From: an archaeon
Lineage (GTDB): Archaea; Iainarchaeota; Iainarchaeia; Iainarchaeales; CSSED10-239
NCBI GenBank assembly: GCA_037147375.1
Contig: JBAWVI010000040.1
Location: 1-8,372 of the forward strand
Direction: 5' to 3'
DNA length: 8,372 nucleotides
Part shown: positions 1 to 8,372 of the stretch, in pieces
Position numbering within the stretch: position 1 is the stretch's first letter
Layout of the letters: each line of letters starts with the position of its first letter
Position numbers and translations under genes: made by a program
The notes under the pieces: generated by a model
Databases searched by the model: none
What the model saw: the letters and a program-made list of their open reading frames with translations, nothing else
Told to the model about the DNA's origin: nothing

Positions 1-1264
1 AAAGGATCATACAATGTTTTTGTACAATCTTGATGAAGCAACAACAGCTAGAGATTCATACACATCTGATGAAATAGACGGACATTCATTATATGTTAAG
101 TTCTATGAAAGTACAGTAGCTTCAGACGCTAATTTCACAGTACAAATAGATGACTCTGATGGTAAGTACTTAATAGGCGGACAAGGAACAACTCCAACAT
201 GGGGAACTACAAATAACAACTATTACCTTGCAACAAATACAGTTAATTCAAATTCTACATACGGAATATACTATAATTTAAATATCCCTTACTATAACAA
301 TGAGGAAAAATATGTATCTTACAGTATGTTACTACAACCACAATCAATCTCTGCTGGTTTAACTGGAGATTTCAACAAGGTTAAGACAGTTGCTATGGGT
401 TTAAAGGATGCTCAAGCAGTAAAGCCTATTGGAGACACACAATATACATGGAACATATCTGGTATTGAAACATCTGGTAAAGATGCAACTGCATTCCAAG
501 ATAATGGTGACTTTGTAGGAGATAGAAACGATAGTACAACATTTGCTTCAAATTATGCAGCAGATTCATTTGAATCTATTGTAAGAATTGATGTAAATAA
601 TGCTACAAACACACACATCTACGCATATTATGATGCATACACAGGAGATATGGTAACTCTTTCAGATAATGATTTCACTGACACATACAAGCAAGTTGCT
701 TACTCAGATGGAACAAACACATTCAATTTATCTGATGAAGGAAACGATACAGATCTTGAATTCGGTTACACAACATACGGTGCATACGTATCTATCTTAG
801 ATGGATATGTTAATATGACACTTCCTGAACAACAATTAAAAGGACAAATCTTCATAGGTGGAGGAATTTCATCTGAAACAACACTTAATGGTGGAAATGT
901 TACTTTAACTACTGTTGGAACTGTTGTTACAACTGAAGATGGAGCAATGTCTGCAAAATTAGTTTCAAGTAACGTTATAGGCGGAACATCTGGAACAGCA
1001 ATAACTCCAGCTGCTTGGAATGTTGGAACTAATAGACTTGTTTACTTAGATAATGAATCACCAGCAGGTAACATGATCATCGTTGGTGGATTTGTTGTAA
1101 ACACTCTTGCAAAGACAGTATACGGCCTTGAAGACAAGCTTGTTCAATCAGGTAACTACGTTGTTGGAAGAGCAACTAACGGAAATATCATAGTTGCTGG
1201 AACAGACGCTGTTGACACAGCTTCAGCTGCAAAGGAATTAATCGCAGCAATCGAAAACATGTAA
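1..1264 (+). CDS. S-layer-type surface glycoprotein, C-terminal ~420 aa (5' end probably outside the window)
   Basis: The frame is open from nt 2 (K-D-H-T precedes the first ATG at 14). The ATG-14 product has no signal peptide, so the gene is likely 5'-partial. Composition is Thr/Asn/Gly/Tyr-rich and Cys-free. There are 10 N-x-S/T sequons (NFT, NST, NIS, NDS, NAT, NLS, NDT, NMT, NVT, NES). The C-terminus ...MIIVGGFVVNTLAK...NIIVAGTDAVDTASAAKELIAAI recalls the C-terminal domain of Methanococcales-type S-layer proteins (from memory, not searched). GC is higher than in the island genes (22/60 in line 841-900). Confidence 0.65.
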   Translation, partial: KDHTMFLYNLDEATTARDSYTSDEIDGHSLYVKFYESTVASDANFTVQIDDSDGKYLIGGQGTTPTWGTTNNNYYLATNTVNSNSTYGIYYNLNIPYYNNEEKYVSYSMLLQPQSISAGLTGDFNKVKTVAMGLKDAQAVKPIGDTQYTWNISGIETSGKDATAFQDNGDFVGDRNDSTTFASNYAADSFESIVRIDVNNATNTHIYAYYDAYTGDMVTLSDNDFTDTYKQVAYSDGTNTFNLSDEGNDTDLEFGYTTYGAYVSILDGYVNMTLPEQQLKGQIFIGGGISSETTLNGGNVTLTTVGTVVTTEDGAMSAKLVSSNVIGGTSGTAITPAAWNVGTNRLVYLDNESPAGNMIIVGGFVVNTLAKTVYGLEDKLVQSGNYVVGRATNGNIIVAGTDAVDTASAAKELIAAIENM

Positions 1265-1352: not shown

Positions 1353-1518
1353 TTTTTCTGATTATTTTGGTCAATAGCTTGATCAAAAGCAAGTGGGTTT
1401 TGTTCAACAGGTTGACCAAATAAAGACCTATATTCACCTGTTTTTAATCTGATCTTAATTAAACCACCCTTACTAATTTATACATATTACCAAGTTGACT
1501 AGTGAAAAATAGCTAATT

Positions 1519-1540
1519 ATTAACTAGTGCGCTAGTTAAT
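1519..1540. promoter_or_regulatory. 22-bp near-perfect palindrome (operator-like) upstream of ATPase-1
   Basis: ATTAACTAGTG|CGCTAGTTAAT has 10 of 11 symmetric pairs. An extra ACTAGTG half-site lies at 1498-1504. The palindrome sits just upstream of the (AT)n TATA-like tract at ~1549-1562, which is centred about 26 nt before ATG 1582. Confidence 0.45.
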
Positions 1541-1581
1541 TTAGCGATACATATATATATATCCTTAGTTATATACTATAT

Positions 1582-2913
1582 ATGGAAAGAAATAAAATAA
1601 TCCAACAGAACCCCTGGTGGGGAGAACAGGATGATTCTGATCTTTTACAAGTAAGTAAATCTAAATTTAAAATAGATAGAATAAGTTTACAGGTAGTAAA
1701 AGGAAAAGTATATCTAATCAAAGGACCAAGAAGAGTAGGTAAAACAATATACCTAAAACAAATTGCTAGAGATAATAAAGATAGAGCACTTTATATTAAT
1801 TTAGATTCTTTTTCAAACACAAAACCAAATGAATTAATAAGAGAAATAGAATCATTTATTAATCTTAAAAAAGATGCAATAATACTTATAGATGAAGTCC
1901 AAAATTTAAAAGATAATTGCTCATTTTTAAAAGCAATGTCAGATTTAAATATATTAAAAGAGGCAACAGTCTTTGTAACTGGTTCTGATCCAAGAGCAAT
2001 AGAAGTATGCAAACAAAAATTAATTGGAAGATCAGAAGAACAAAGAATAATGGCTCCACTAACCTTTAGACAGTTTTTATTAAATATAACAAAAGAAAAT
2101 AATCTAAAATTAAATAATTCATTACAAAACACAATATCAGTAAAAGATAGTAATAAAATAATAAAAGAAAAATATTTATTATTAGAACCCCATACCATAG
2201 AAATAGAAAAATATTTTGATATATATCTATTAACTGGTGGTTTCCCAGAAACTATTAATTGTTACCTAACAAATAATACAATAACTAAAAAGTACTATGA
2301 AGACTTAATACAGAAAATATTTGAAAAATTAGATAAACAAAAAACAATTTCTATTTTAAGAATACTAAACAATAGTTTGTCTAATTCATTAAAGTATTCT
2401 ACTATATCCCAAAAAGCAGAGTTATCCCCAGATACTGTTAAAAGCTATTTATTTGATTTAAGTGAGTTACTATTATTATTCGAAGTTAAAGAAAAACAAA
2501 ATGATCATCAAAAAAAATATTATTTTAAAGATCCATTTATAATCCACTCAATAAATTCATATTATTCTAATTTAGATCCATTTATGGAGTCTATAAATTA
2601 TATTTTAAATGAACAAACAAAAGGTCAATTAGTTGAAAATGTAGTTGCTGGTCATTTACATAATATTTATTTTCACAATTTACAATATTTATTTACAAAA
2701 AATAAAGAAGTTGATTTTATAATGTATAATAAAGCAATAGAAGTAAAATATAGGGCTAATATCGTCGCTCCTAATAAGATCGCAGGAGATCTAGAATATT
2801 TATTACTTACTAGATATCCTCAAGGGCTAGTTGATATAGAAAAAAATAATACATTAGCAATACCTGTAAGTTCATTTCTTGCTATGTTAGAGCCCCCAAT
2901 TAATTTTTTATAA
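1582..2913 (+). CDS. AAA+ ATPase of the AAA_14/DUF4143 (COG1373-like) type with C-terminal D..ExK nuclease-like motif (paralog 1)
   Basis: 443-aa ORF. The N-terminal NPWW motif is typical of this family. Walker A is GPRRVGKT (aa 48-55, nt 1723-1746). Walker B is IILIDEVQ (aa ~100-107). The C-terminal motif is EVDFIMYNKAIEVKY, with D378 at nt 2713-2715, E387 at 2740-2742 and K389 at 2746-2748. The family call is from memory of the domain architecture. Confidence 0.85.
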   Translation: MERNKIIQQNPWWGEQDDSDLLQVSKSKFKIDRISLQVVKGKVYLIKGPRRVGKTIYLKQIARDNKDRALYINLDSFSNTKPNELIREIESFINLKKDAIILIDEVQNLKDNCSFLKAMSDLNILKEATVFVTGSDPRAIEVCKQKLIGRSEEQRIMAPLTFRQFLLNITKENNLKLNNSLQNTISVKDSNKIIKEKYLLLEPHTIEIEKYFDIYLLTGGFPETINCYLTNNTITKKYYEDLIQKIFEKLDKQKTISILRILNNSLSNSLKYSTISQKAELSPDTVKSYLFDLSELLLLFEVKEKQNDHQKKYYFKDPFIIHSINSYYSNLDPFMESINYILNEQTKGQLVENVVAGHLHNIYFHNLQYLFTKNKEVDFIMYNKAIEVKYRANIVAPNKIAGDLEYLLLTRYPQGLVDIEKNNTLAIPVSSFLAMLEPPINFL

Positions 2914-2920
2914 TTTTTGA

Positions 2921-2959
2921 TATCAGTGACTTTACTGATAAAAGGCTTCAACTTTTTTT
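2921..2959 (+). terminator. Hairpin plus T7 run downstream of ATPase-1
   Basis: TATCAGT (2921-2927) pairs with ACTGATA (2934-2940) around a 6-nt loop. A TTTTTTT run follows at 2953-2959. The hairpin / T-run / family-A-core layout is the same as after the surface-protein gene. Confidence 0.5.
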
Positions 2960-2994
2960 AAATTCTCCTGAGACGTAAGTCTAGGCCCTAATAA
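2953..2994 (+). repeat. Repeat family A, copy 2
   Basis: TTTTTTTAAATTCTCCTGAGACGTAAGTCTAGGCCCTAATAA aligns to 1310-1352 with 4 mismatches and 1 gap. Confidence 0.85.
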
Positions 2995-3042
2995 CATCAT
3001 AGATCTATTTAAAAGGATAACTATTAGTATGTTATATACACC

Positions 3043-3066
3043 TAACATATTATTAATAATATGTTA
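3043..3066. promoter_or_regulatory. 24-bp perfect palindrome (operator-like) upstream of ATPase-2
   Basis: TAACATATTATT|AATAATATGTTA has all 12 symmetric pairs matching. An extra TATGTTA half-site lies at 3029-3035. The palindrome is 33-45 nt upstream of the candidate starts at 3099 and 3111. Confidence 0.45.
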
Positions 3067-3098
3067 CTTGCACATAACCAACTATAATGTGATATTTT

Positions 3099-4427
3099 AT
3101 GCGAGATATTATGTCTTATAATCAAAATATTTTAATTTCACAAAACCAATGGTGGAAAGAACAAATATCTATTGATTATAAAGAAAGAGATGAACATCTA
3201 AAAATATTACAATATTTAAAGGAACCTCAAATAATAGCTATAACAGGAATTAGAAGAGTTGGAAAAACAACAACCTTATATAAATTAATTGAAAAATACA
3301 TTTTAGAAGGCTTTAATAAAACAAGTATTTTATTTGTTTCTTTTGATGAACTTAAAGAAGAAAAAATAAGAAACATAATAGAAGATTATTGTATATTACA
3401 CAACAAAGATTTATTCAAAGATAATTTATTATTTTTCTTTGATGAAATTCAAAAAGTTAATAATTGGGAAGATCAATTAAAATCAATATATGATGAACAT
3501 AAACTAAAAGGAAATATTAAAATATTTATATCAGGCTCAGAATCTCTATTTATAAGAAAAAAATCAAAAGAATCTCTAGCAGGAAGAATATATGAATTTA
3601 AATTAAATCCATTATCCTTTAAAGAATATTTATCTTTTATAAATTATAATTTCGATAATATTAATCTATATAATAAAGAGTTATTGCAAAAGTTTAATGA
3701 ATATATTATTTCCCAAGGATTCCCAGAATTAATAAATAAAACAAATAAAGAAATAATAAAGAATTATACTTCTGGAATTATTGAAAAAGTAATATTTAGT
3801 GATATTGCAATTCAGTTTAAAGTCAAAAATCCATCAGTTTTAGAATCAATAGTAAACATAATCTCAAATGAACCTGGGCAGATAATAGATAACAATGGTT
3901 TAGCAAAAGAACTTGGAATATCTAGACAATTAATTTCAACATATTTAAAATATTTGTGTGATTCCTTCTTAGTTTTAAAATTATATAACTTTTCTAAAAA
4001 TCAAAGAAAATCAGAAAGAAAGCAAAAGAAGTATTATCCAATTATTTTACCAAATCAATTGGTCTTTAGTGATGATTATCTTATTAAAACAAAAGTTTTT
4101 GAAAGTATTATTGTTAGTCAATTAGAATCTAATTTTTTTTGGAGAACTCCTCAACAAAATGAAGTGGATATTATATTAACAAAAGATAATAAAATAATCC
4201 CAATAGAAATAAAATATGGTAAAATAGAAACTACAGGGCTTGTTAAGTTTTTAACAACTTTTAATTTAGATAAGGGATATATAATTAGTTATAATGAAGA
4301 AAAAATAATAACAAATAATGTTAAAATTAAAACTAATTCAGGCATAGTTAAAGACGTTAAGAAAACAATTTATGTTATTCCAGCATATAAGTTTTTGCTT
4401 CTTAAAGATAAATATTTATCAGGATAA
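3099..4427 (+). CDS. AAA+ ATPase of the AAA_14/DUF4143 (COG1373-like) type with C-terminal D..ExK nuclease-like motif (paralog 2)
   Basis: 442-aa ORF. ATG 3111 (MSYNQNILISQNQWW) aligns better with the N-terminus of paralog 1 and may be the true start. Walker A is GIRRVGKTT (aa 50-58). Walker B is LFFFDEIQ. The C-terminal motif is EVDIILTKDNKIIPIEIKY, with D357 at nt 4167-4169, E370 at 4206-4208 and K372 at 4212-4214. Confidence 0.85.
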   Translation: MRDIMSYNQNILISQNQWWKEQISIDYKERDEHLKILQYLKEPQIIAITGIRRVGKTTTLYKLIEKYILEGFNKTSILFVSFDELKEEKIRNIIEDYCILHNKDLFKDNLLFFFDEIQKVNNWEDQLKSIYDEHKLKGNIKIFISGSESLFIRKKSKESLAGRIYEFKLNPLSFKEYLSFINYNFDNINLYNKELLQKFNEYIISQGFPELINKTNKEIIKNYTSGIIEKVIFSDIAIQFKVKNPSVLESIVNIISNEPGQIIDNNGLAKELGISRQLISTYLKYLCDSFLVLKLYNFSKNQRKSERKQKKYYPIILPNQLVFSDDYLIKTKVFESIIVSQLESNFFWRTPQQNEVDIILTKDNKIIPIEIKYGKIETTGLVKFLTTFNLDKGYIISYNEEKIITNNVKIKTNSGIVKDVKKTIYVIPAYKFLLLKDKYLSG

Positions 4428-4437
4428 AGAATGGTTC

Positions 4438-4482
4438 TTTAATGAAGCTTGGCCAGCTACCCCCCCGAAAGGAATATATTTA
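4438..4482 (+). promoter_or_regulatory. Repeat family B, copy 1: GC-rich 33-mer fused to a BRE/TATA-like box, upstream of the RhuM gene
   Basis: TTTAATGAAGCTTGGCCAGCTACCCCCCCGAAA (4438-4470) is 31/33 identical to 5529-5561. Its 3' end, CCGAAAGG + AATATATTTA, resembles an archaeal BRE (CGAAA-type) plus TATA box. It lies about 31-40 nt before ATG 4513. Confidence 0.6.
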
Positions 4483-4512
4483 CAATTTACACTAATATAT
4501 GTGTGATTGTAC

Positions 4513-5523
4513 ATGAATAAGGAAATTATATCTGAAAAAAATAGCTTTTTACTTTATAAATCTCCTACTGGAGAAATAAAAATAGACGTATTTTTACATG
4601 ATGAAACAATTTGGTTGACCCAAAAGAAAATAGCAGAATTATTTAGTGTAGAAACAAATACAATTAACTATCATTTAAAAGAAATTTTTAAATCAAAAGA
4701 ATTAGATGAAAATTCAACTATTCGAAAATTTCGAATAGTTCAAAAAGAAGGTTTAAGAGAAGTAGAAAGAGAAGTAGAATTATATAATTTAGATGTAATT
4801 ATTTCTGTAGGATACAGAGTTAATTCTTCAAAAGCAACTCAATTCAGAATTTGGGCAAATAAAATTTTAAAAGAATATATAATTAAAGGATTTGCTATAG
4901 ATGATTATAGATTAAAGAATCCAAATTATTTTATAAATGATTATTTTAACGAACTTCTTGAAAGAATAAGGTCAATTAGAACTAGTGAAAGAAGGATTTA
5001 TCAAAAAATAACAGATATTTTTGCAGAATGCAGTATTGATTATGATTCTAATTCTAAGATTACAAAAGATTTCTATGCTACAGTTCAAAATAAATTTCAT
5101 TATGCAATTACAGGAAGTACAGCTTCAGAAATTATTTTTAATAAATCAGATGCAAAAAAAGTAAATATGGGTTTAACAACTTGGAGAAATGCACCAACTG
5201 GTAAAATTTTAAAATCAGATGTAATTATTGCTAAAAATTATCTTCAAGAAAAAGAGATTAAACAACTCGAGAGAACAGTATCTAGTTTTTTTGATTATAT
5301 TGAGAGAATTGTGGAAAGTAAGAAACTAATGTATATGGAAGATTTAGCAGAAAGTGTTAATAAATTTTTAGAATTTAATGAATATAAAAAGCTAAAAGAT
5401 AAAGGTAAAATTTCTTTTAAAAATGCAGAAAATAAAGCAATCAAAGAATACACTAAATTTAATAAGACTCAAATAATCGAATCTGACTTTGATAAATTTT
5501 CAAAGCGTTTATTAAATAAATAA
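4513..5523 (+). CDS. rhuM: RhuM-family (Virulence_RhuM) protein
   Basis: The ORF track starts at TTG 4507, but ATG 4513 (MNKEII...) is the more likely start. The N-terminal half (LLYKSPTGEIKIDVFLHDETIWLTQKKIAELFSVETNTINYHLKEIFKSKEL...LYNLDVIISVGYRVNSSKATQFRIWANKILKEYIIKGF) matches the conserved RhuM signature as I remember it. The tail is helical and Lys/Glu-rich. Confidence 0.85.
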   Translation: MNKEIISEKNSFLLYKSPTGEIKIDVFLHDETIWLTQKKIAELFSVETNTINYHLKEIFKSKELDENSTIRKFRIVQKEGLREVEREVELYNLDVIISVGYRVNSSKATQFRIWANKILKEYIIKGFAIDDYRLKNPNYFINDYFNELLERIRSIRTSERRIYQKITDIFAECSIDYDSNSKITKDFYATVQNKFHYAITGSTASEIIFNKSDAKKVNMGLTTWRNAPTGKILKSDVIIAKNYLQEKEIKQLERTVSSFFDYIERIVESKKLMYMEDLAESVNKFLEFNEYKKLKDKGKISFKNAENKAIKEYTKFNKTQIIESDFDKFSKRLLNK

Positions 5524-5528
5524 TATAT

Positions 5529-5571
5529 TTTAATGATGCTTGGCCAGCTACCCTCCCGAAAAGTATATACA
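5529..5571 (+). promoter_or_regulatory. Repeat family B, copy 2: same 33-mer plus BRE/TATA-like box, upstream of the ORF6N gene
   Basis: TTTAATGATGCTTGGCCAGCTACCCTCCCGAAA (5529-5561) is followed by AG + TATATACA (5564-5571). The TATA centre lies about 27 nt before ATG 5595, consistent with a leaderless transcript. Confidence 0.6.
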
Positions 5572-5594
5572 CGACCATTTCTATAATATATCTG

Positions 5595-5858
5595 ATGATT
5601 ATACGAATGATAGGAAATAATTTAATTACTCAGGAGAACATAAAATATAAAATTTATAAAATCAGAGATACCCAAGTTATGCTTGATAGAGACTTAGCTA
5701 ACCTATATGAAATAGATGCTATACGTTTGCGTGAGCAAGTGAAAAGAAATATTGCAAGATTTACAAATAAGTTTATGTTTCAATTGAATCTTGTTGAAAT
5801 TGATTTCATGGTATCACAAAATGTGATACCAAGTTTAAAGAAGTTAGCTATCTTGTGA
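5595..5858 (+). CDS. ORF6N (KilA-N-like) domain protein, apparently 3'-truncated or scrambled (possible pseudogene)
   Basis: IYKIRDTQVMLDRDLANLYEIDAIRLREQVKRNIARFTNKFMFQL matches the ORF6N core pattern (..R...VMLD.DLA.LY.V....L...VKRN..RF...FMFQL). The ORF ends at TGA 5856-5858. The next 17 in-frame codons (SQIVTTNLGWDGVPYTP, stop at 5910-5912) resemble the usual family continuation (..SQIVTS..GG....PY.FT..) better than the actual tail VSQNVIPSLKKLAIL does. Confidence 0.7.
   Translation: MIIRMIGNNLITQENIKYKIYKIRDTQVMLDRDLANLYEIDAIRLREQVKRNIARFTNKFMFQLNLVEIDFMVSQNVIPSLKKLAIL
5809..5831. repeat. 23-nt perfect hairpin/palindrome TGGTATCACA-AAA-TGTGATACCA inside the ORF6N 3' end
   Basis: All 10 arm pairs match. 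It shares the TCACA/TGTGA core with the downstream 13-mers. Confidence 0.8.
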
Positions 5859-5878
5859 TCACAAATTGTGACCACAAA
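5853..5878. repeat. Tandem 13-mer x2 (TTGTGATCACAAA / TTGTGACCACAAA), each itself palindromic
   Basis: The two units are 12/13 identical. 5853-5864 (TTGTGATCACAA) is a perfect 12-bp palindrome. 5859-5871 (TCACAA-A-TTGTGA) forms a second, overlapping palindrome. The array spans the ORF6N stop codon. Confidence 0.8.
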
Positions 5879-5891
5879 TTTAGGATGGGAT

Positions 5892-5908
5892 GGGGTGCCT
5901 TACACCCC
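5892..5908 (+). terminator. GC-rich hairpin GGGGTG-CCTTA-CACCCC followed by TTAAATTTA
   Basis: A 6-bp G/C-rich stem in an otherwise ~20% GC region, at the end of the ORF6N remnant frame. A terminator role is inferred only. Confidence 0.3.
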
Positions 5909-5935
5909 TTAAATTTATAGTCTAAATGCAACTCA

Positions 5936-5943
5936 TTTATAAA
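5936..5943 (+). promoter_or_regulatory. TATA box (TTTATAAA) for the wHTH-NTase operon
   Basis: Near-consensus archaeal TATA centred about 26 nt upstream of ATG 5966, implying a leaderless mRNA. ATGCAACT occurs on both sides of it (5926-5933 and 5966-5973). Confidence 0.5.
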
Positions 5944-5965
5944 CCTTTAGCACCACAATATAATT

Positions 5966-6844
5966 ATGCAACTAACAAAGAATGAATTAAGTTGTTTTTT
6001 AGAGATTTTTTCAAATAAACTTACTCCAAAGGAACTATCAAGCAAATTTAAGAAAAGTAAATATCAAATATATAGATATATCTCTAATCTACAAAAATTT
6101 GGTTTGATTACTAAACTCGAACATAGATACCTAGAACCAAGTAAATCAATTCATGCAATTAAACTTGGATTACTATTACAAAAACATCCAGAGATAATAC
6201 ACATATTATCTGATTCTGGATTAGATGTTCTATCTAAACTTCTAATACCTCTAACCATTAATCAATTATCTCTAGAAACTAAATTAAAATCAATAACAAT
6301 ATATAAAATTATAAATAATGCAAAACAAATGTCTATTGTAAGAAAAGAAGAAAAGAAATATTTAATTAATAAACTAATTTGGAAAGACTTATATGAATTT
6401 TTAAATGAATACAATACATTTAATCAAACGATAGATTCTCGTGTACCTGTTAGTTCAAAAATATATTATTCTGATAAAAATGAAGTTATTTTTTCCACAT
6501 TAAAAGAATTACCAAATTATAAAAAAACATCCTTTTCTGTTTTTGTAAACTATGGTTTAGATTTAGGATCAAATACTTATTATTACACAACCAAACAAAA
6601 AAATACACAAAACATAGATGAAGTTGTTTTAGATACTTTAAAAGTATTAGAAAAGGATATGGATTATCATGATTTAATATACTTATCTTTACTTTATTTA
6701 AAGTATAAACCAAAACTAAAATCAATCACACACCCAATACTTGAAAACATTAAACTAATATTAACTGGTCTAAAAATAGATAACTATCCAAGTCTAATTG
6801 AAATAAAAGAAAAAGCAGAACAATATAATATAAAAATAGATTAA
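5966..6844 (+). CDS. Winged-helix (wHTH) DNA-binding protein, candidate AbiEi-like antitoxin/regulator
   Basis: 292-aa ORF. There are two HTH-like segments (LTPKELSSKFKKSKYQIYRYISNLQKFGLITK and LTINQLSLETKLKSITIYKIINNAKQMSIVRK) followed by a ~150-aa C-terminal domain. Its stop lies 2 nt before the start of the NTase gene. The functional call rests on architecture and context, not on demonstrated homology. Confidence 0.6.
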   Translation: MQLTKNELSCFLEIFSNKLTPKELSSKFKKSKYQIYRYISNLQKFGLITKLEHRYLEPSKSIHAIKLGLLLQKHPEIIHILSDSGLDVLSKLLIPLTINQLSLETKLKSITIYKIINNAKQMSIVRKEEKKYLINKLIWKDLYEFLNEYNTFNQTIDSRVPVSSKIYYSDKNEVIFSTLKELPNYKKTSFSVFVNYGLDLGSNTYYYTTKQKNTQNIDEVVLDTLKVLEKDMDYHDLIYLSLLYLKYKPKLKSITHPILENIKLILTGLKIDNYPSLIEIKEKAEQYNIKID

Positions 6845-6846
6845 TA

Positions 6847-7506
6847 ATGATAGATGATATAATTCAAATAGATAATCTATTTCAGGAAATTGATTTGCAC
6901 ATAGATGCTAAAGTTAATATCTATCTTATTGGTGGTGTAGTTTTATTAACTAGAAATTTAAGAAAAGTTACTAAAGATATTGATGCAATCGTTGCATCAA
7001 AAAAAGATTATCAAATATTAAAAACAGTATTTACTAAATTATTGTTTACTGAAAGTAAACCAACAAAAGAGTACAGTCGTCTTAACTTAAGTCAAATATT
7101 TATTAGAAAGGATTATAGAGTTGATTTATTTGAAAAGGTAGTTTGCAAACAACTCGCATTAAGTAAGAATATGATTTCTCGTGCTAAATTATACAAAAAA
7201 TATAATCAAATATCTGTGTATTTTTGTTCAGACGAAGATATTTTTATATTTAAATCAATTACTGATAGGAACGGAGATGTAATTGATTGTATTGGGCTTG
7301 CAGAAAAAAGAATAGATTGGAAAATAATACTTAATGAAATAAAATATCAAATTCAATTAAGTGGAAATGAAATATGGATAACCTTCTTTGAAGAGAGATT
7401 AAATTTAATGGAAGATAAAGGTCTTGTTATTCCAATTATAAAAGAAGTTAGAAAGTTATCTGAAAAATATTATCTTGAACTTGAAAAGCAATTAAATAAT
7501 AAATAA
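6847..7506 (+). CDS. Pol-beta-fold nucleotidyltransferase, candidate AbiEii-like toxin
   Basis: 219-aa ORF. The NTase signature is LIGGVVLLTRNLRKVTKDIDAIV (G29-G30 ... D44-x-D46, nt 6931-6984). A candidate third acidic residue lies in YRVDLFE. A downstream FKSITDRNGDVIDCIGL motif resembles the K..(A)..R..D..D motif of the AbiEii/DUF1814-type NTases. The gene is translationally coupled to the upstream wHTH gene (TAATAATG). Confidence 0.7.
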   Translation: MIDDIIQIDNLFQEIDLHIDAKVNIYLIGGVVLLTRNLRKVTKDIDAIVASKKDYQILKTVFTKLLFTESKPTKEYSRLNLSQIFIRKDYRVDLFEKVVCKQLALSKNMISRAKLYKKYNQISVYFCSDEDIFIFKSITDRNGDVIDCIGLAEKRIDWKIILNEIKYQIQLSGNEIWITFFEERLNLMEDKGLVIPIIKEVRKLSEKYYLELEKQLNNK

Positions 7507-7519
7507 GGATACTATGCAT

Positions 7520-7537
7520 TTTCCAGACGTCTGGAAA
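7520..7537. terminator. 18-bp perfect palindrome TTTCCAGAC|GTCTGGAAA between convergent genes
   Basis: All 9 symmetric pairs match. It lies between the NTase stop (7506) and the stop of the - strand ATPase (7565), so it is a likely bidirectional terminator hairpin. Confidence 0.55.
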
Positions 7538-7564: not shown

Positions 7565-8372
7565 TTATTCTAAATCAGCAGCAATATCGCTTGCATCTTT
7601 CTTTTCTTCGTTTATTCTCTTAACTATCTTTGGAGTAAAGGAATCATGATACCATTTCTTCCAGATTGTTGTTATATCATTGTAATCTATTTTTCCTTTT
7701 TCTTCAAGATAATCTTCTTTTAAAAGAAGTAACTTGTTGTGAGCAAATGCAGTGTTTTCTGCTTCAAGTAATTCTATACAATCCATTTCGTGTGCAACTT
7801 CTACTTGATATTCCTTTTCAGTTGCAAGCATCTTAATATTATCCCAAACCTCTTCTATTCCCATTCCTGAAAGACGACAGATTTTTGAAAAGAGCTCAGA
7901 ATCCTTAAGTGCATCCTCGTTTAAGATTAATGCATCTTTTCCAGCATCATACTCTAAGAGATTTAGAAGACCACCCTCAGCATCAGGATCTTTATTCCAA
8001 TGCTTTCTAACTTCTGTTATTTGAACAACTCTACGGTGGCTCTTAAGTGAACCTTTAAACCTAATTGGCTTTGCAACAACAACCAAGTCTGTTGCCTTAA
8101 ATGAAGTAGTAGGCACCCCTAAATCATTAACAACTCTATCCCATACAGCATAAGCAGAGTCAGCATGTATTGTTCCCATAACAACGTTACCTGCTGCACC
8201 AATTCTCATAGCTTCATATAGTACTTTAGCTTCCACAGATCTAACTTCACCAACAATAAGCGCTGAATCTCCAAGTCTTAATGCAGTTCTAAGTGCGTCC
8301 TCTGGCTTAACTTCTGCGCTCTCTTCGCTTGCACCAATAGCAGACCTTGTCTTTAATCTTTGAATTAGTTTC
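7565..8372 (-). CDS. Type II/IV secretion-system family ATPase (GspE/VirB11/FlaI-like; archaeal pilus or archaellum type), C-terminal part; N-terminus outside the window
   Basis: The ORF track starts at an internal GTG (8236), but the frame stays open to the window edge. I translated upstream ...KLIQRLKTRSAIGASEESAEVKPEDALRTALRLGDSALIVGEVRSVEAKVLYEAMRIGAAGNVVMGTIHADSA.... The LIVGEVR (Walker B/Asp-box region) and GTIHA (His box) are characteristic of this family. GC is higher (22/60 in line 8041-8100). Confidence 0.75.
   Translation of the reverse strand, partial: KLIQRLKTRSAIGASEESAEVKPEDALRTALRLGDSALIVGEVRSVEAKVLYEAMRIGAAGNVVMGTIHADSAYAVWDRVVNDLGVPTTSFKATDLVVVAKPIRFKGSLKSHRRVVQITEVRKHWNKDPDAEGGLLNLLEYDAGKDALILNEDALKDSELFSKICRLSGMGIEEVWDNIKMLATEKEYQVEVAHEMDCIELLEAENTAFAHNKLLLLKEDYLEEKGKIDYNDITTIWKKWYHDSFTPKIVKRINEEKKDASDIAADLE

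Follow-up and report, generated by a model that had tools for sequence, protein, structure and literature searches.

A two-gene module of archaea that pairs a winged-helix protein with a DUF6036 nucleotidyltransferase, and its likeness to AbiE and MenAT systems

An 8,372-nucleotide (nt) stretch of archaeal contig JBAWVI010000040.1, which in its whole length is called the window here, carries two open reading frames (ORFs) that make up a self-contained two-gene module found across archaea; its genes are tightly coupled and were always adjacent. The first encodes a 292-amino-acid (aa) winged-helix protein, hereafter the partner, and the second a 219-aa nucleotidyltransferase (NTase) of the pol-beta superfamily. 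We assign a probability of roughly one half to the reading that this module is an archaeal toxin-antitoxin or abortive-infection system resembling MenAT and AbiE, built from different protein families. On our analysis the module would be a functional analogue and a distant structural relative of AbiE and MenAT rather than a member of the AbiEi/AbiEii families; its toxicity, target and mechanism of neutralization are what we infer. A sequence-only reading of the same DNA had proposed an AbiE-like pair, and its claims are taken up below where the evidence bears on them.

The NTase matches the DUF6036 family (PF19502) with 29.7 bits against a cut-off of 23.6, and so do 28 of 29 NTase homologues (best E 2.6e-10), some of which also match DUF2204, GrpB or NTP_transf_5; searches of NCBIfam and PADLOC gave no match for the NTase. 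Its AlphaFold2 model (predicted local distance difference test, pLDDT, 92.6) comprises an alpha/beta NTase core and, C-terminal to it, a domain of five helices. Across 186 full-length homologues, residues G29, G30, T42, D44, D46, K136, D144 and D147 are 100% invariant, so that we read the NTase as an active and strongly constrained enzyme. Judged by these alignments, the motifs can hardly be due to chance, the active site has been subject to strict purifying selection and the enzyme should be catalytically intact.

When the NTase model was compared with the Protein Data Bank (PDB) by Foldseek, the first match was MenT1 (8an5_B, from the MenAT1 complex), with an E value of 9.9e-5 and template-modeling (TM) scores of 0.44/0.51. 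The next matches were TM1012, ANT(2'')-Ia and LnuA (TM 0.42-0.62), all other NTases reached at most 0.32 on the query, and MenT3 and MenT4 were not among the 50 best matches. MenT1 was likewise the sole sequence match in the PDB for the NTase family profile (E 0.45), with GG...TKDiD aligned to GG...TRDVD, and the single NTase sequence had no match there. The model therefore suggests a fold in the MenT/AbiEii - ANT(2'') - TM1012 neighborhood of the pol-beta superfamily. The authors of the AbiEii work include ANT(2'')-Ia in a 'DUF1814 superfamily' (bioRxiv 10.64898/2026.01.19.700257).

For a comparison of profiles, an AbiEii profile was assembled from four archaeal AbiEii genes that lie beside the module and about 22 from IMG/VR, because full-length MenT1 homologues were not obtained: a search seeded with a 48-residue MenT1 fragment returned only fragments of 52-84 aa, which carry PF08843, and a tblastn search of plasmids found nothing. 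The NTase and AbiEii profiles aligned colinearly by hhalign over 144 columns with four motifs in register (P = 1.2e-3, probability 19%), and the controls gave P values of 0.076 against MNT-type NTases (47 columns) and 0.12 against a reversed AbiEii alignment. In this alignment, which is statistically weak, the motif IV-like pattern of the NTase is in register with K-x6-R-x3-R-D-x2-D of AbiEii, at a spacing four residues shorter, and D93 with I-D-I; the AbiEii pattern K...R...RD..D was read from the archaeal AbiEii sequences beside the module. Motif IV is described as unique to DUF1814 (PMC10435456). Motifs I and II, which align to GG...TRDVD of MenT1 and GG...SEDLD of archaeal AbiEii, are shared with pol-beta NTases and are not family-specific. 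We read this link as a distant relationship within the same structural neighborhood, not as family membership.

Since the model resembles ANT(2'')-Ia, LnuA and TM1012 about as closely as MenT1, the NTase might instead modify an antibiotic or a metabolite in the manner of ANT(2'')-Ia or LnuA, with the partner as its dedicated regulator. Resistance genes commonly have a regulator gene beside them, which would suit this explanation. Nevertheless, we consider it improbable, and less likely than the regulatory pair weighed further below. Resistance enzymes are not known to be fused to as many as three winged helices or to co-evolve with a regulator's C-terminal domain, two to three paralogues would be unexpected in tiny DPANN genomes, the K..R..D..D pattern aligns with AbiEii, and transporter or biosynthetic genes do not recur nearby.

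A profile search of 1.84 billion representative proteins (clusters at 50% identity, E <= 1e-3) found at least 1552 clusters of the NTase family. In a scan with one genome per species, relatives were present in 127 stretches, all of them archaeal and representing at least 127 species, among Woesearchaeota/Nanoarchaeota, other DPANN archaea, Methanosarcinales, Methanofastidiosum, Thermoplasmata, Methanomassiliicoccales and Hydrothermarchaeota. We fetched 80 loci, about 75 of which include upstream DNA, and in every one of these the gene immediately preceding the NTase on the same strand encodes a partner orthologue of 276-351 aa. The gap between the two genes ranges from -46 to +13 nt when naive ORF starts are used, and a 4-nt overlap is frequent. 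In the window the junction reads ...GAT TAA TA ATG..., and no Shine-Dalgarno-like G-rich stretch was seen upstream of the NTase ATG in the junction sequence. One further contig has the same arrangement, with a MarR_2 plus HVO_2833_C protein followed by a DUF6036 plus winged helix-turn-helix (wHTH) protein and with PAS/GAF histidine kinases on its flanks; its acidic proteins make it look haloarchaeal.

Some relatives have dispensed with the gene boundary. Among 203 sequences whose architecture was counted, 99 consist of the NTase only, as in the window, and 65 have a C-terminal extension that is winged-helix-like in some of them (weak TrmB/HTH_Cmi2_C matches in P0091 and P0055, none in P0086, P0100 and P0090); 22 are single chains of 537-569 aa and 17 are fragments. 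The single chains read wHTH - HVO_2833_C - DUF6036 - wHTH by Pfam, with HVO_2833_C recognized at 39.6 bits against a cut-off of 34 in the fused protein P0105. Homology between the partner and the N-terminal half of these chains was detected by hhalign (probability 98.1%, E 7.8e-14), and the HVO_2833_C domain adjoins the NTase. These fusions indicate that the two proteins of the window act together and probably touch.

The partner was modeled by AlphaFold2 (pLDDT 90.1) as two helix-helix-helix-strand-strand winged-helix units, at residues ~5-58 and 85-134, with a C-terminal domain of mixed alpha/beta structure at residues 140-292. TrmB matches it with 30.9 bits against a cut-off of 25.6, Csa3/CARF3 HTH models of PADLOC cover residues 76-150, and an LSDSG linker motif that precedes the second winged helix is invariant in the seven members of alignment A2. 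The best Foldseek matches are the tandem winged-helix proteins RPC62 and SelB WH2-4, and the family matches are generic winged-helix ones only (TrmB, MarR, ArsR and others). PDB searches returned spurious matches only, to eIF2B-gamma with the partner sequence (E 0.32) and to interleukin-4 with the C-terminal-domain profile (E ~1). HVO_2833_C (PF24271) matches 35 of 53 orthologous partner C-terminal domains, with a best E value of 5.4e-24. The window's own C-terminal domain has no PF24271 match at E <= 5 and is counted as HVO_2833_C because it is homologous through alignment A4, not by direct score. In the 53-sequence alignment of this domain Y207 is the sole fully invariant column, and T188, S191, Y244 and Y287 are further conserved hydroxyl residues. 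The idea that the domain is a degenerate NTase was rejected (hhalign of A4 against A1: 13 columns, probability 0.5%).

Identities of NTases and of their partners are strongly correlated (r = 0.915 over 2080 comparisons, Mantel p = 0.001), with a mean identity of 45% for the NTase versus 35% for the partner. Of the parts of the partner, the C-terminal domain follows NTase identity most closely (r = 0.89) and the first winged helix least closely (r = 0.73). In two tandem modules of one locus (L006), identity is 86% between the NTases and 85% between the C-terminal domains, versus 37-38% for the winged helices. These values indicate that the C-terminal domain stays with the enzyme, whereas the DNA-binding heads diverge or are swapped. 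From the gene fusion seen in many relatives and from the co-evolution of the two genes, we conclude that the C-terminal domain is functionally tied to the NTase, which it probably contacts.

Much of what the sequence-only reading described is borne out by these results. The ORF coordinates and the AlphaFold2 model agree with its 292-aa protein of two winged helices and a C-terminal domain, the junction has the 2-nt spacing that it reported between the partner stop and the 219-aa NTase, and all motifs of its complete pol-beta signature, later acidic strand and K..R..D..D pattern are present. The catalytic aspartates are conserved among homologues (D44 and D46 in 186/186, D93 in 185/186). Its regulator-first order, coupling and defense-island context also stand, the last through two PDC-S01 genes, a PDC-S05 gene and an ORF6N remnant upstream. 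Finally, its suggestion of a distinct, undescribed archaeal branch is in keeping with relatives that are exclusively archaeal and with the lack of a description in the literature searched.

The surroundings of the module vary widely. The 422 flanking ORFs of 82 loci fell into 339 clusters, 294 of which are singletons, and there is thus no conserved synteny. Recurrent neighbors include Fic proteins matching SoFic/PDC-S04 (10 loci), true AbiEii proteins (4 loci; PADLOC E 1e-62 to 1e-68, PF08843 3.4e-26) and wHTH-MNT proteins matching PDC-M05A (4 loci; 5e-18). Several loci or genomes hold the module in tandem or in multiple copies. Its two genes move together through variable and often defense-rich neighborhoods, and the module displays general traits of toxin-antitoxin and abortive-infection systems: an autonomous pair, variable context, multiple copies and defense neighbors. 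Moreover, the NTase is frameshifted or truncated beside an intact partner in L052, L073 and L077, and also in L047 at a contig edge, and no intact NTase with a decayed partner was seen in the loci examined. Such an asymmetry is what a toxin would show. A viral origin was considered and rejected, as no relative is present in IMG/VR or PHROGs and BFVD holds generic small NTases only.

Genes for Lhr helicase, PCNA and a beta-CASP nuclease also recur, each in 4-5 of the 82 loci. Together with the pol-beta fold, the DNA- or RNA-binding partner and the broad archaeal distribution, they would be expected if the NTase were a housekeeping terminal transferase that a winged-helix protein tethers to DNA or RNA ends, for example in repair or RNA maturation. 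This explanation also seems improbable to us and ranks below the regulatory pair. Synteny is not conserved, with those genes each present in at most 5/82 loci, genomes carry multiple divergent copies whose winged-helix heads are swapped, pseudogenized NTases are tolerated, and the patchy placement is atypical of core functions.

Alternatively, the two proteins could form a non-toxic enzyme-regulator pair, in which the NTase would nucleotidylylate the partner and thereby switch a multi-winged-helix transcription factor, as in MntA-HepT or GlnE/GlnD. Stable fusions (22/203), many with a third winged helix, fit one regulatory machine better than two antagonists. Possible acceptors would be available in the conserved hydroxyl residues T188, S191, Y207, Y244 and Y287, the domain that bears them co-evolves with the NTase, and some loci lie among housekeeping genes. 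We regard such a pair as unlikely, given that the neighborhoods are highly variable and hold no conserved candidate target genes and that the module is found repeatedly among defense candidates. Tandem paralogous copies, decay seen in the NTase only and a nearest structural relative that is a tRNA-modifying toxin argue against it as well.

The reading of the module as an AbiE- or MenAT-like system has to be set against a number of observations that weigh against it. PF08843 matched neither the window NTase nor its 29 homologues at E <= 5, and the PADLOC AbiE models matched neither protein of the window (AbiEii at E <= 1). No similarity of the partner to AbiEi or MenA proteins was detectable in profile or structure searches; for example, neither AbiEi (6Y8Q) nor Rv2827c was among the 50 best Foldseek matches of the whole partner model, which are dominated by winged helices. 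The hhalign probability of just 19% does not amount to a statistically solid sequence link to AbiEii. The TM-scores of MenT1 are modest (0.44-0.51) and equaled by TM1012, ANT(2'')-Ia and LnuA, the latter two of which have small molecules as substrates. T42 is non-discriminating, since Ser or Thr is commonly found in pol-beta NTases at the second position ahead of the first catalytic Asp. Stable single-chain fusions are unusual for classical toxin-antitoxin pairs, some of the loci are set among housekeeping genes, the decay asymmetry comprises only 3-4 cases in metagenome-assembled genomes, and IMG/VR viral contigs carry no family member, versus AbiEii on 27.

Membership in the AbiE family was rejected: Pfam, NCBIfam and PADLOC gave no AbiEi or AbiEii match for either protein or for the 29 and 7 homologues scanned, and the AbiEi families PF13338, PF09407, PF11459 and PF17194 are absent among the matches listed for the partner at E <= 5 (10 of 10 families for the window protein, 25 of 36 for the seven A2 members). 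As a positive control, the PADLOC and Pfam models detect genuine archaeal AbiEii in neighboring loci. The AbiE-like label of the sequence-only reading thus survives as an analogy and a distant structural likeness, with MenT1 as best match and motifs in register, and fails as a family assignment; the comparison with PF08843 and the AbiEi families that it called for leads instead to DUF6036 for the NTase and to an HVO_2833_C-type domain for the partner. Its description of AbiE as type IV is dated, since a 2026 preprint reclassifies AbiE as type VII with antitoxin-induced auto-phosphorylation, and so is its GTP-specific AbiEii, for which UTP use is reported; nucleotide preference among AbiEii/MenT proteins varies between UTP, CTP and GTP (bioRxiv 10.64898/2026.01.19.700257). 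That the NTase is shorter than AbiEii is correct for typical AbiEii proteins, but MenT1, a 196-residue chain, is shorter still.

Several variants of the module were observed. Loci L032 (1745-3036), L038 (1993-3335) and L077 (7485-8437) each carry a second, divergent module beside the main one, in which a shorter partner (182-228 aa, weak TrmB) lies upstream of a 219-aa NTase (family E 1e-18 to 1e-37); that of L077 has an NTase truncated at the locus end. These may represent a sub-family whose partner has one winged helix. The NTases of L075 (4001-5890) and P0070 (381 aa) have C-terminal extensions of ~410 and ~160 aa, respectively, without a Pfam match, which represent additional domain fusions. 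At D223 of the partner (6632-6634), the window protein and its closest relatives have Asp-Thr, whereas 75 of 84 homologues, including fused ones, have His-Ser (I-H-S-L), and the window clade may differ in the function of this site. Modules in L015/L019, L020/L021/L024 and L030/L043 are 81-94% identical across differently labeled phyla or orders (Woesearchaeota vs Methanosarcinales; Thermoplasmata vs Nanoarchaeota, all metagenome-assembled genomes), which means that they were transferred horizontally in recent times or that the genomes are unreliably classified or binned. Finally, a small gene for a MazG-like pyrophosphohydrolase lies divergently just upstream of the module in L005 (531-905), L006 (9461-9817) and L052 (2511-2876); this could denote a functional link to the NTase or shared ancestry of three related loci.

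In the window, the module stands at the end of a low-GC block (~1500-7500; GC 0.19-0.29 vs 0.33-0.38 on either side) that would fit an inserted island of ~6 kb (Table 1). Both ATPases upstream match PADLOC PDC-S01 with E values down to 9.4e-60, and PDC-S01 is especially abundant in Archaea according to a survey (PMC12988326). The short ORF between the RhuM gene and the module appears to be what is left of another RhuM-like gene. Scans of the window gave no match to tRNA genes or Rfam families, and there is therefore no obvious integration site; no integrase family was matched among the eight window ORFs scanned against Pfam. A longer copy of the contig carries MCM, RPA and eIF-2 beta genes, which, like the exclusively archaeal relatives of the module, support an archaeal origin of the DNA.

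Table 1. Coordinates of features in the window
Feature	Positions	Strand	Remarks
S-layer-like protein gene	14-1264		Flank
AAA_14/DUF4143 ATPase genes, tandem paralogues	1582-2913 and 3099-4427	+	443 and 442 aa; Pfam; PADLOC PDC-S01
RhuM gene, full-length	4507-5523	+	PADLOC PDC-S05, E 4.7e-147
ORF6N remnant	5595-5858	+	87 aa; only the ORF6N/anti-repressor N-terminal domain; matches N-terminal parts of PDC-S05
TATA-box-like TTTATAAA	5936-5943	+	23-30 nt upstream of partner ATG; read from the sequence
Partner gene	5966-6844	+	292 aa; two winged helices and HVO_2833_C-type C-terminal domain; proposed regulator/neutralizer
First winged helix, residues 1-60	5966-6145	+	Pfam TrmB at residues 3-55; H5-16, H21-28, H32-44, E48-50, E56-58
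Second winged helix, residues ~82-137	6209-6376	+	H85-91, H98-105, H109-121, E125-128, E131-134
Partner C-terminal domain, residues 138-292	6377-6841	+	HVO_2833_C type; proposed NTase-binding domain
Gene junction TAA-TA-ATG	6842-6849	+	Stop codon 6842-6844, 2-nt spacer, ATG at 6847
NTase gene	6847-7506	+	219 aa; DUF6036, pol-beta superfamily; proposed effector
Motif I, G29-G30	6931-6936	+	Invariant 186/186; 13 residues to D44
Motif II, T42-K43-D44-I45-D46	6970-6984	+	Metal-binding aspartates; T42, D44, D46 invariant 186/186
D93, third acidic residue	7123-7125	+	Conserved 185/186; R91-V-D93-L-F95 (motif III-like) on predicted strand E90-96
Motif IV-like K136-x4-R141-x2-D144-x2-D147	7252-7287	+	K136, D144, D147 186/186; R141 185/186
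Hairpin TTTCCAGACGTCTGGAAA with T-rich tail	7520-7537	+	Between NTase stop and convergent ATPase gene
T2SSE-type ATPase gene	7565-8236	-	Flank; runs off the window

The TATA-box-like element TTTATAAA is a candidate archaeal promoter that would yield a leaderless or near-leaderless mRNA; its region was also caught as an A/T hexamer by a simple motif scan, in AT-rich surroundings. Downstream of the module, the hairpin TTTCCAGACGTCTGGAAA is a possible terminator, and a scan found 3 terminator-like sites versus 0.3 expected. An 8-nt repeat, ATGCAACT, is present on both sides of the TATA box. Farther upstream, a 32-nt direct repeat (5806-5882; 75% identity, 45-nt spacing) straddles the end of the ORF6N remnant. 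Each copy contains a palindrome of the type TCACAA-N-TTGTGA, such as TGGTATCACAaaaTGTGATACCA and TTGTGATCACAAaTTGTGACCACAA, located 85-160 nt upstream of the partner gene and before a terminator-like hairpin, which is GC-rich, has a T tract and occupies 5892-5908. The direct repeat could be a protein-binding site or the end of a repeat element. An operator was not called from the palindromes or the ATGCAACT repeat, because the signal is too weak in DNA of 75% A+T.

If the module is a toxin-antitoxin or abortive-infection system, the winged helices of the partner would serve to repress the operon, and its C-terminal domain would keep the NTase inactive. Neutralization could possibly proceed by induced auto-phosphorylation of the invariant T42, comparable to the action of MenA1, MenA3 and AbiEi. 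Loss of this control, for example upon virus infection or loss of the element, would free the NTase, which might then add nucleotides to an essential RNA, most plausibly at tRNA 3' ends, and growth would stop. A broader and more tentative conjecture, which we hold to be possible but doubtful, is that these modules constitute archaea-wide NTase effector systems of a type VII-like kind in which the partner is both sensor and switch. The winged-helix heads would read DNA or viral nucleic acid, HVO_2833_C would clamp the NTase, and the fusions would be sensor-toxins like CapRel; the module would then be a major defense or addiction system of DPANN archaea and methanogens.

According to a survey (PMC12988326), AbiE, SoFic and single-gene candidates are enriched in DPANN archaea. 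The present module is common (at least 1552 clusters and at least 127 species), compact and repeatedly found beside candidates of the AbiE and SoFic types, yet it is invisible to PADLOC; its proteins belong to families different from those of AbiE and MenAT, so that current defense-finding tools miss it. If our reading is correct, an archaeal branch would be added to a toxin family that has been characterized experimentally mainly in bacteria. The partner would represent a third, unrelated type of neutralizing protein with which the proposed universality of induced auto-phosphorylation can be tested, and the split and fused forms would provide a natural experiment on the wiring of sensor, regulator and effector. 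The reading is also a first functional hypothesis for two Pfam families, DUF6036 and HVO_2833_C, to which the two proteins belong and which are both functionally uncharacterized. In the literature searched there is no mention of DUF6036 or HVO_2833, only a passing mention of DUF2204 in an unrelated paper, and nothing on "Cmi2" with Haloferax. Relative to that literature, the obligatory pairing, fusion, co-evolution, archaeal breadth and defense embedding are new, the Pfam families themselves having been named. HVO_2833_C takes its name from Haloferax volcanii HVO_2833, and if that protein is paired with a DUF6036 NTase, a genetically tractable model would be at hand.

Among known systems, HepT-MntA (HEPN-MNT, type VII) also places a pol-beta NTase in a two-gene module, and there the NTase MntA modifies (AMPylates) its partner HepT. 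The module NTase differs in having an extra helical domain with the K..R..D..D motif. HEPN-MNT identity was rejected: no HEPN family matched the partner, and inspection of its C-terminal consensus revealed neither a HEPN domain nor an Rx4-6H motif; NTP_transf_2 (PF01909) matched only 3 of 29 NTase homologues, weakly (best E 0.12), and the hhalign comparison with a local MNT cluster covered motifs I and II only (47 columns, P = 0.076). PDC-M05 is likewise an archaeal defense candidate of PADLOC, enriched in Archaea, that combines a winged helix with an NTase, but its NTase M05A is of the MNT type (PF01909), has ~200 aa and bears a MarR-like HTH at the N terminus. Identity with PDC-M05 was rejected as well, the window NTase having no PADLOC match while neighboring wHTH-MNT genes match PDC-M05A at 5e-18. 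ANT(2'')-Ia, LnuA and TM1012, the last of them uncharacterized, resemble the NTase in size and fold (TM 0.42-0.62), and none of them is known to possess an obligatory winged-helix partner or fusion.

The likeness to AbiE lies in a winged-helix regulator followed by an NTase, tight coupling, a defense-island setting, a partner made of an N-terminal DNA-binding part and a C-terminal domain, and four NTase motifs in the same order. The module differs in its two winged helices, in the unrelated C-terminal domain PF24271 and in a motif IV that is four residues shorter. MenAT systems are also two-gene operons with the neutralizing partner first, and different systems use different partner families (PMC11375011). 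MenA1 consists of a 68-aa helix and lacks a DNA-binding domain (PMC10435456), whereas the partner here has 292 aa, two winged helices and HVO_2833_C; MenT proteins belong to PF08843, which the NTase does not match, and the present module is archaeal only and has fused forms. The closest counterpart is MenAT1 of M. tuberculosis (MenA1-MenT1, Rv0078B/Rv0078A), whose toxin is as compact as the NTase (a chain of 196 versus 219 aa). T39, D41, K137 and D152 of MenT1 are experimentally essential active-site residues (PMC10435456), T39 is its auto-phosphorylation site (PMC10435456, PMC11375011), and T39 of MenT1 and S78 of MenT3, whose position T42 takes in the archaeal NTase, are the phospho-acceptors (PMC11375011). 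These four MenT1 residues correspond, at similar spacing, to T42, D44, K136 and D147 (or D144) of the archaeal NTase.

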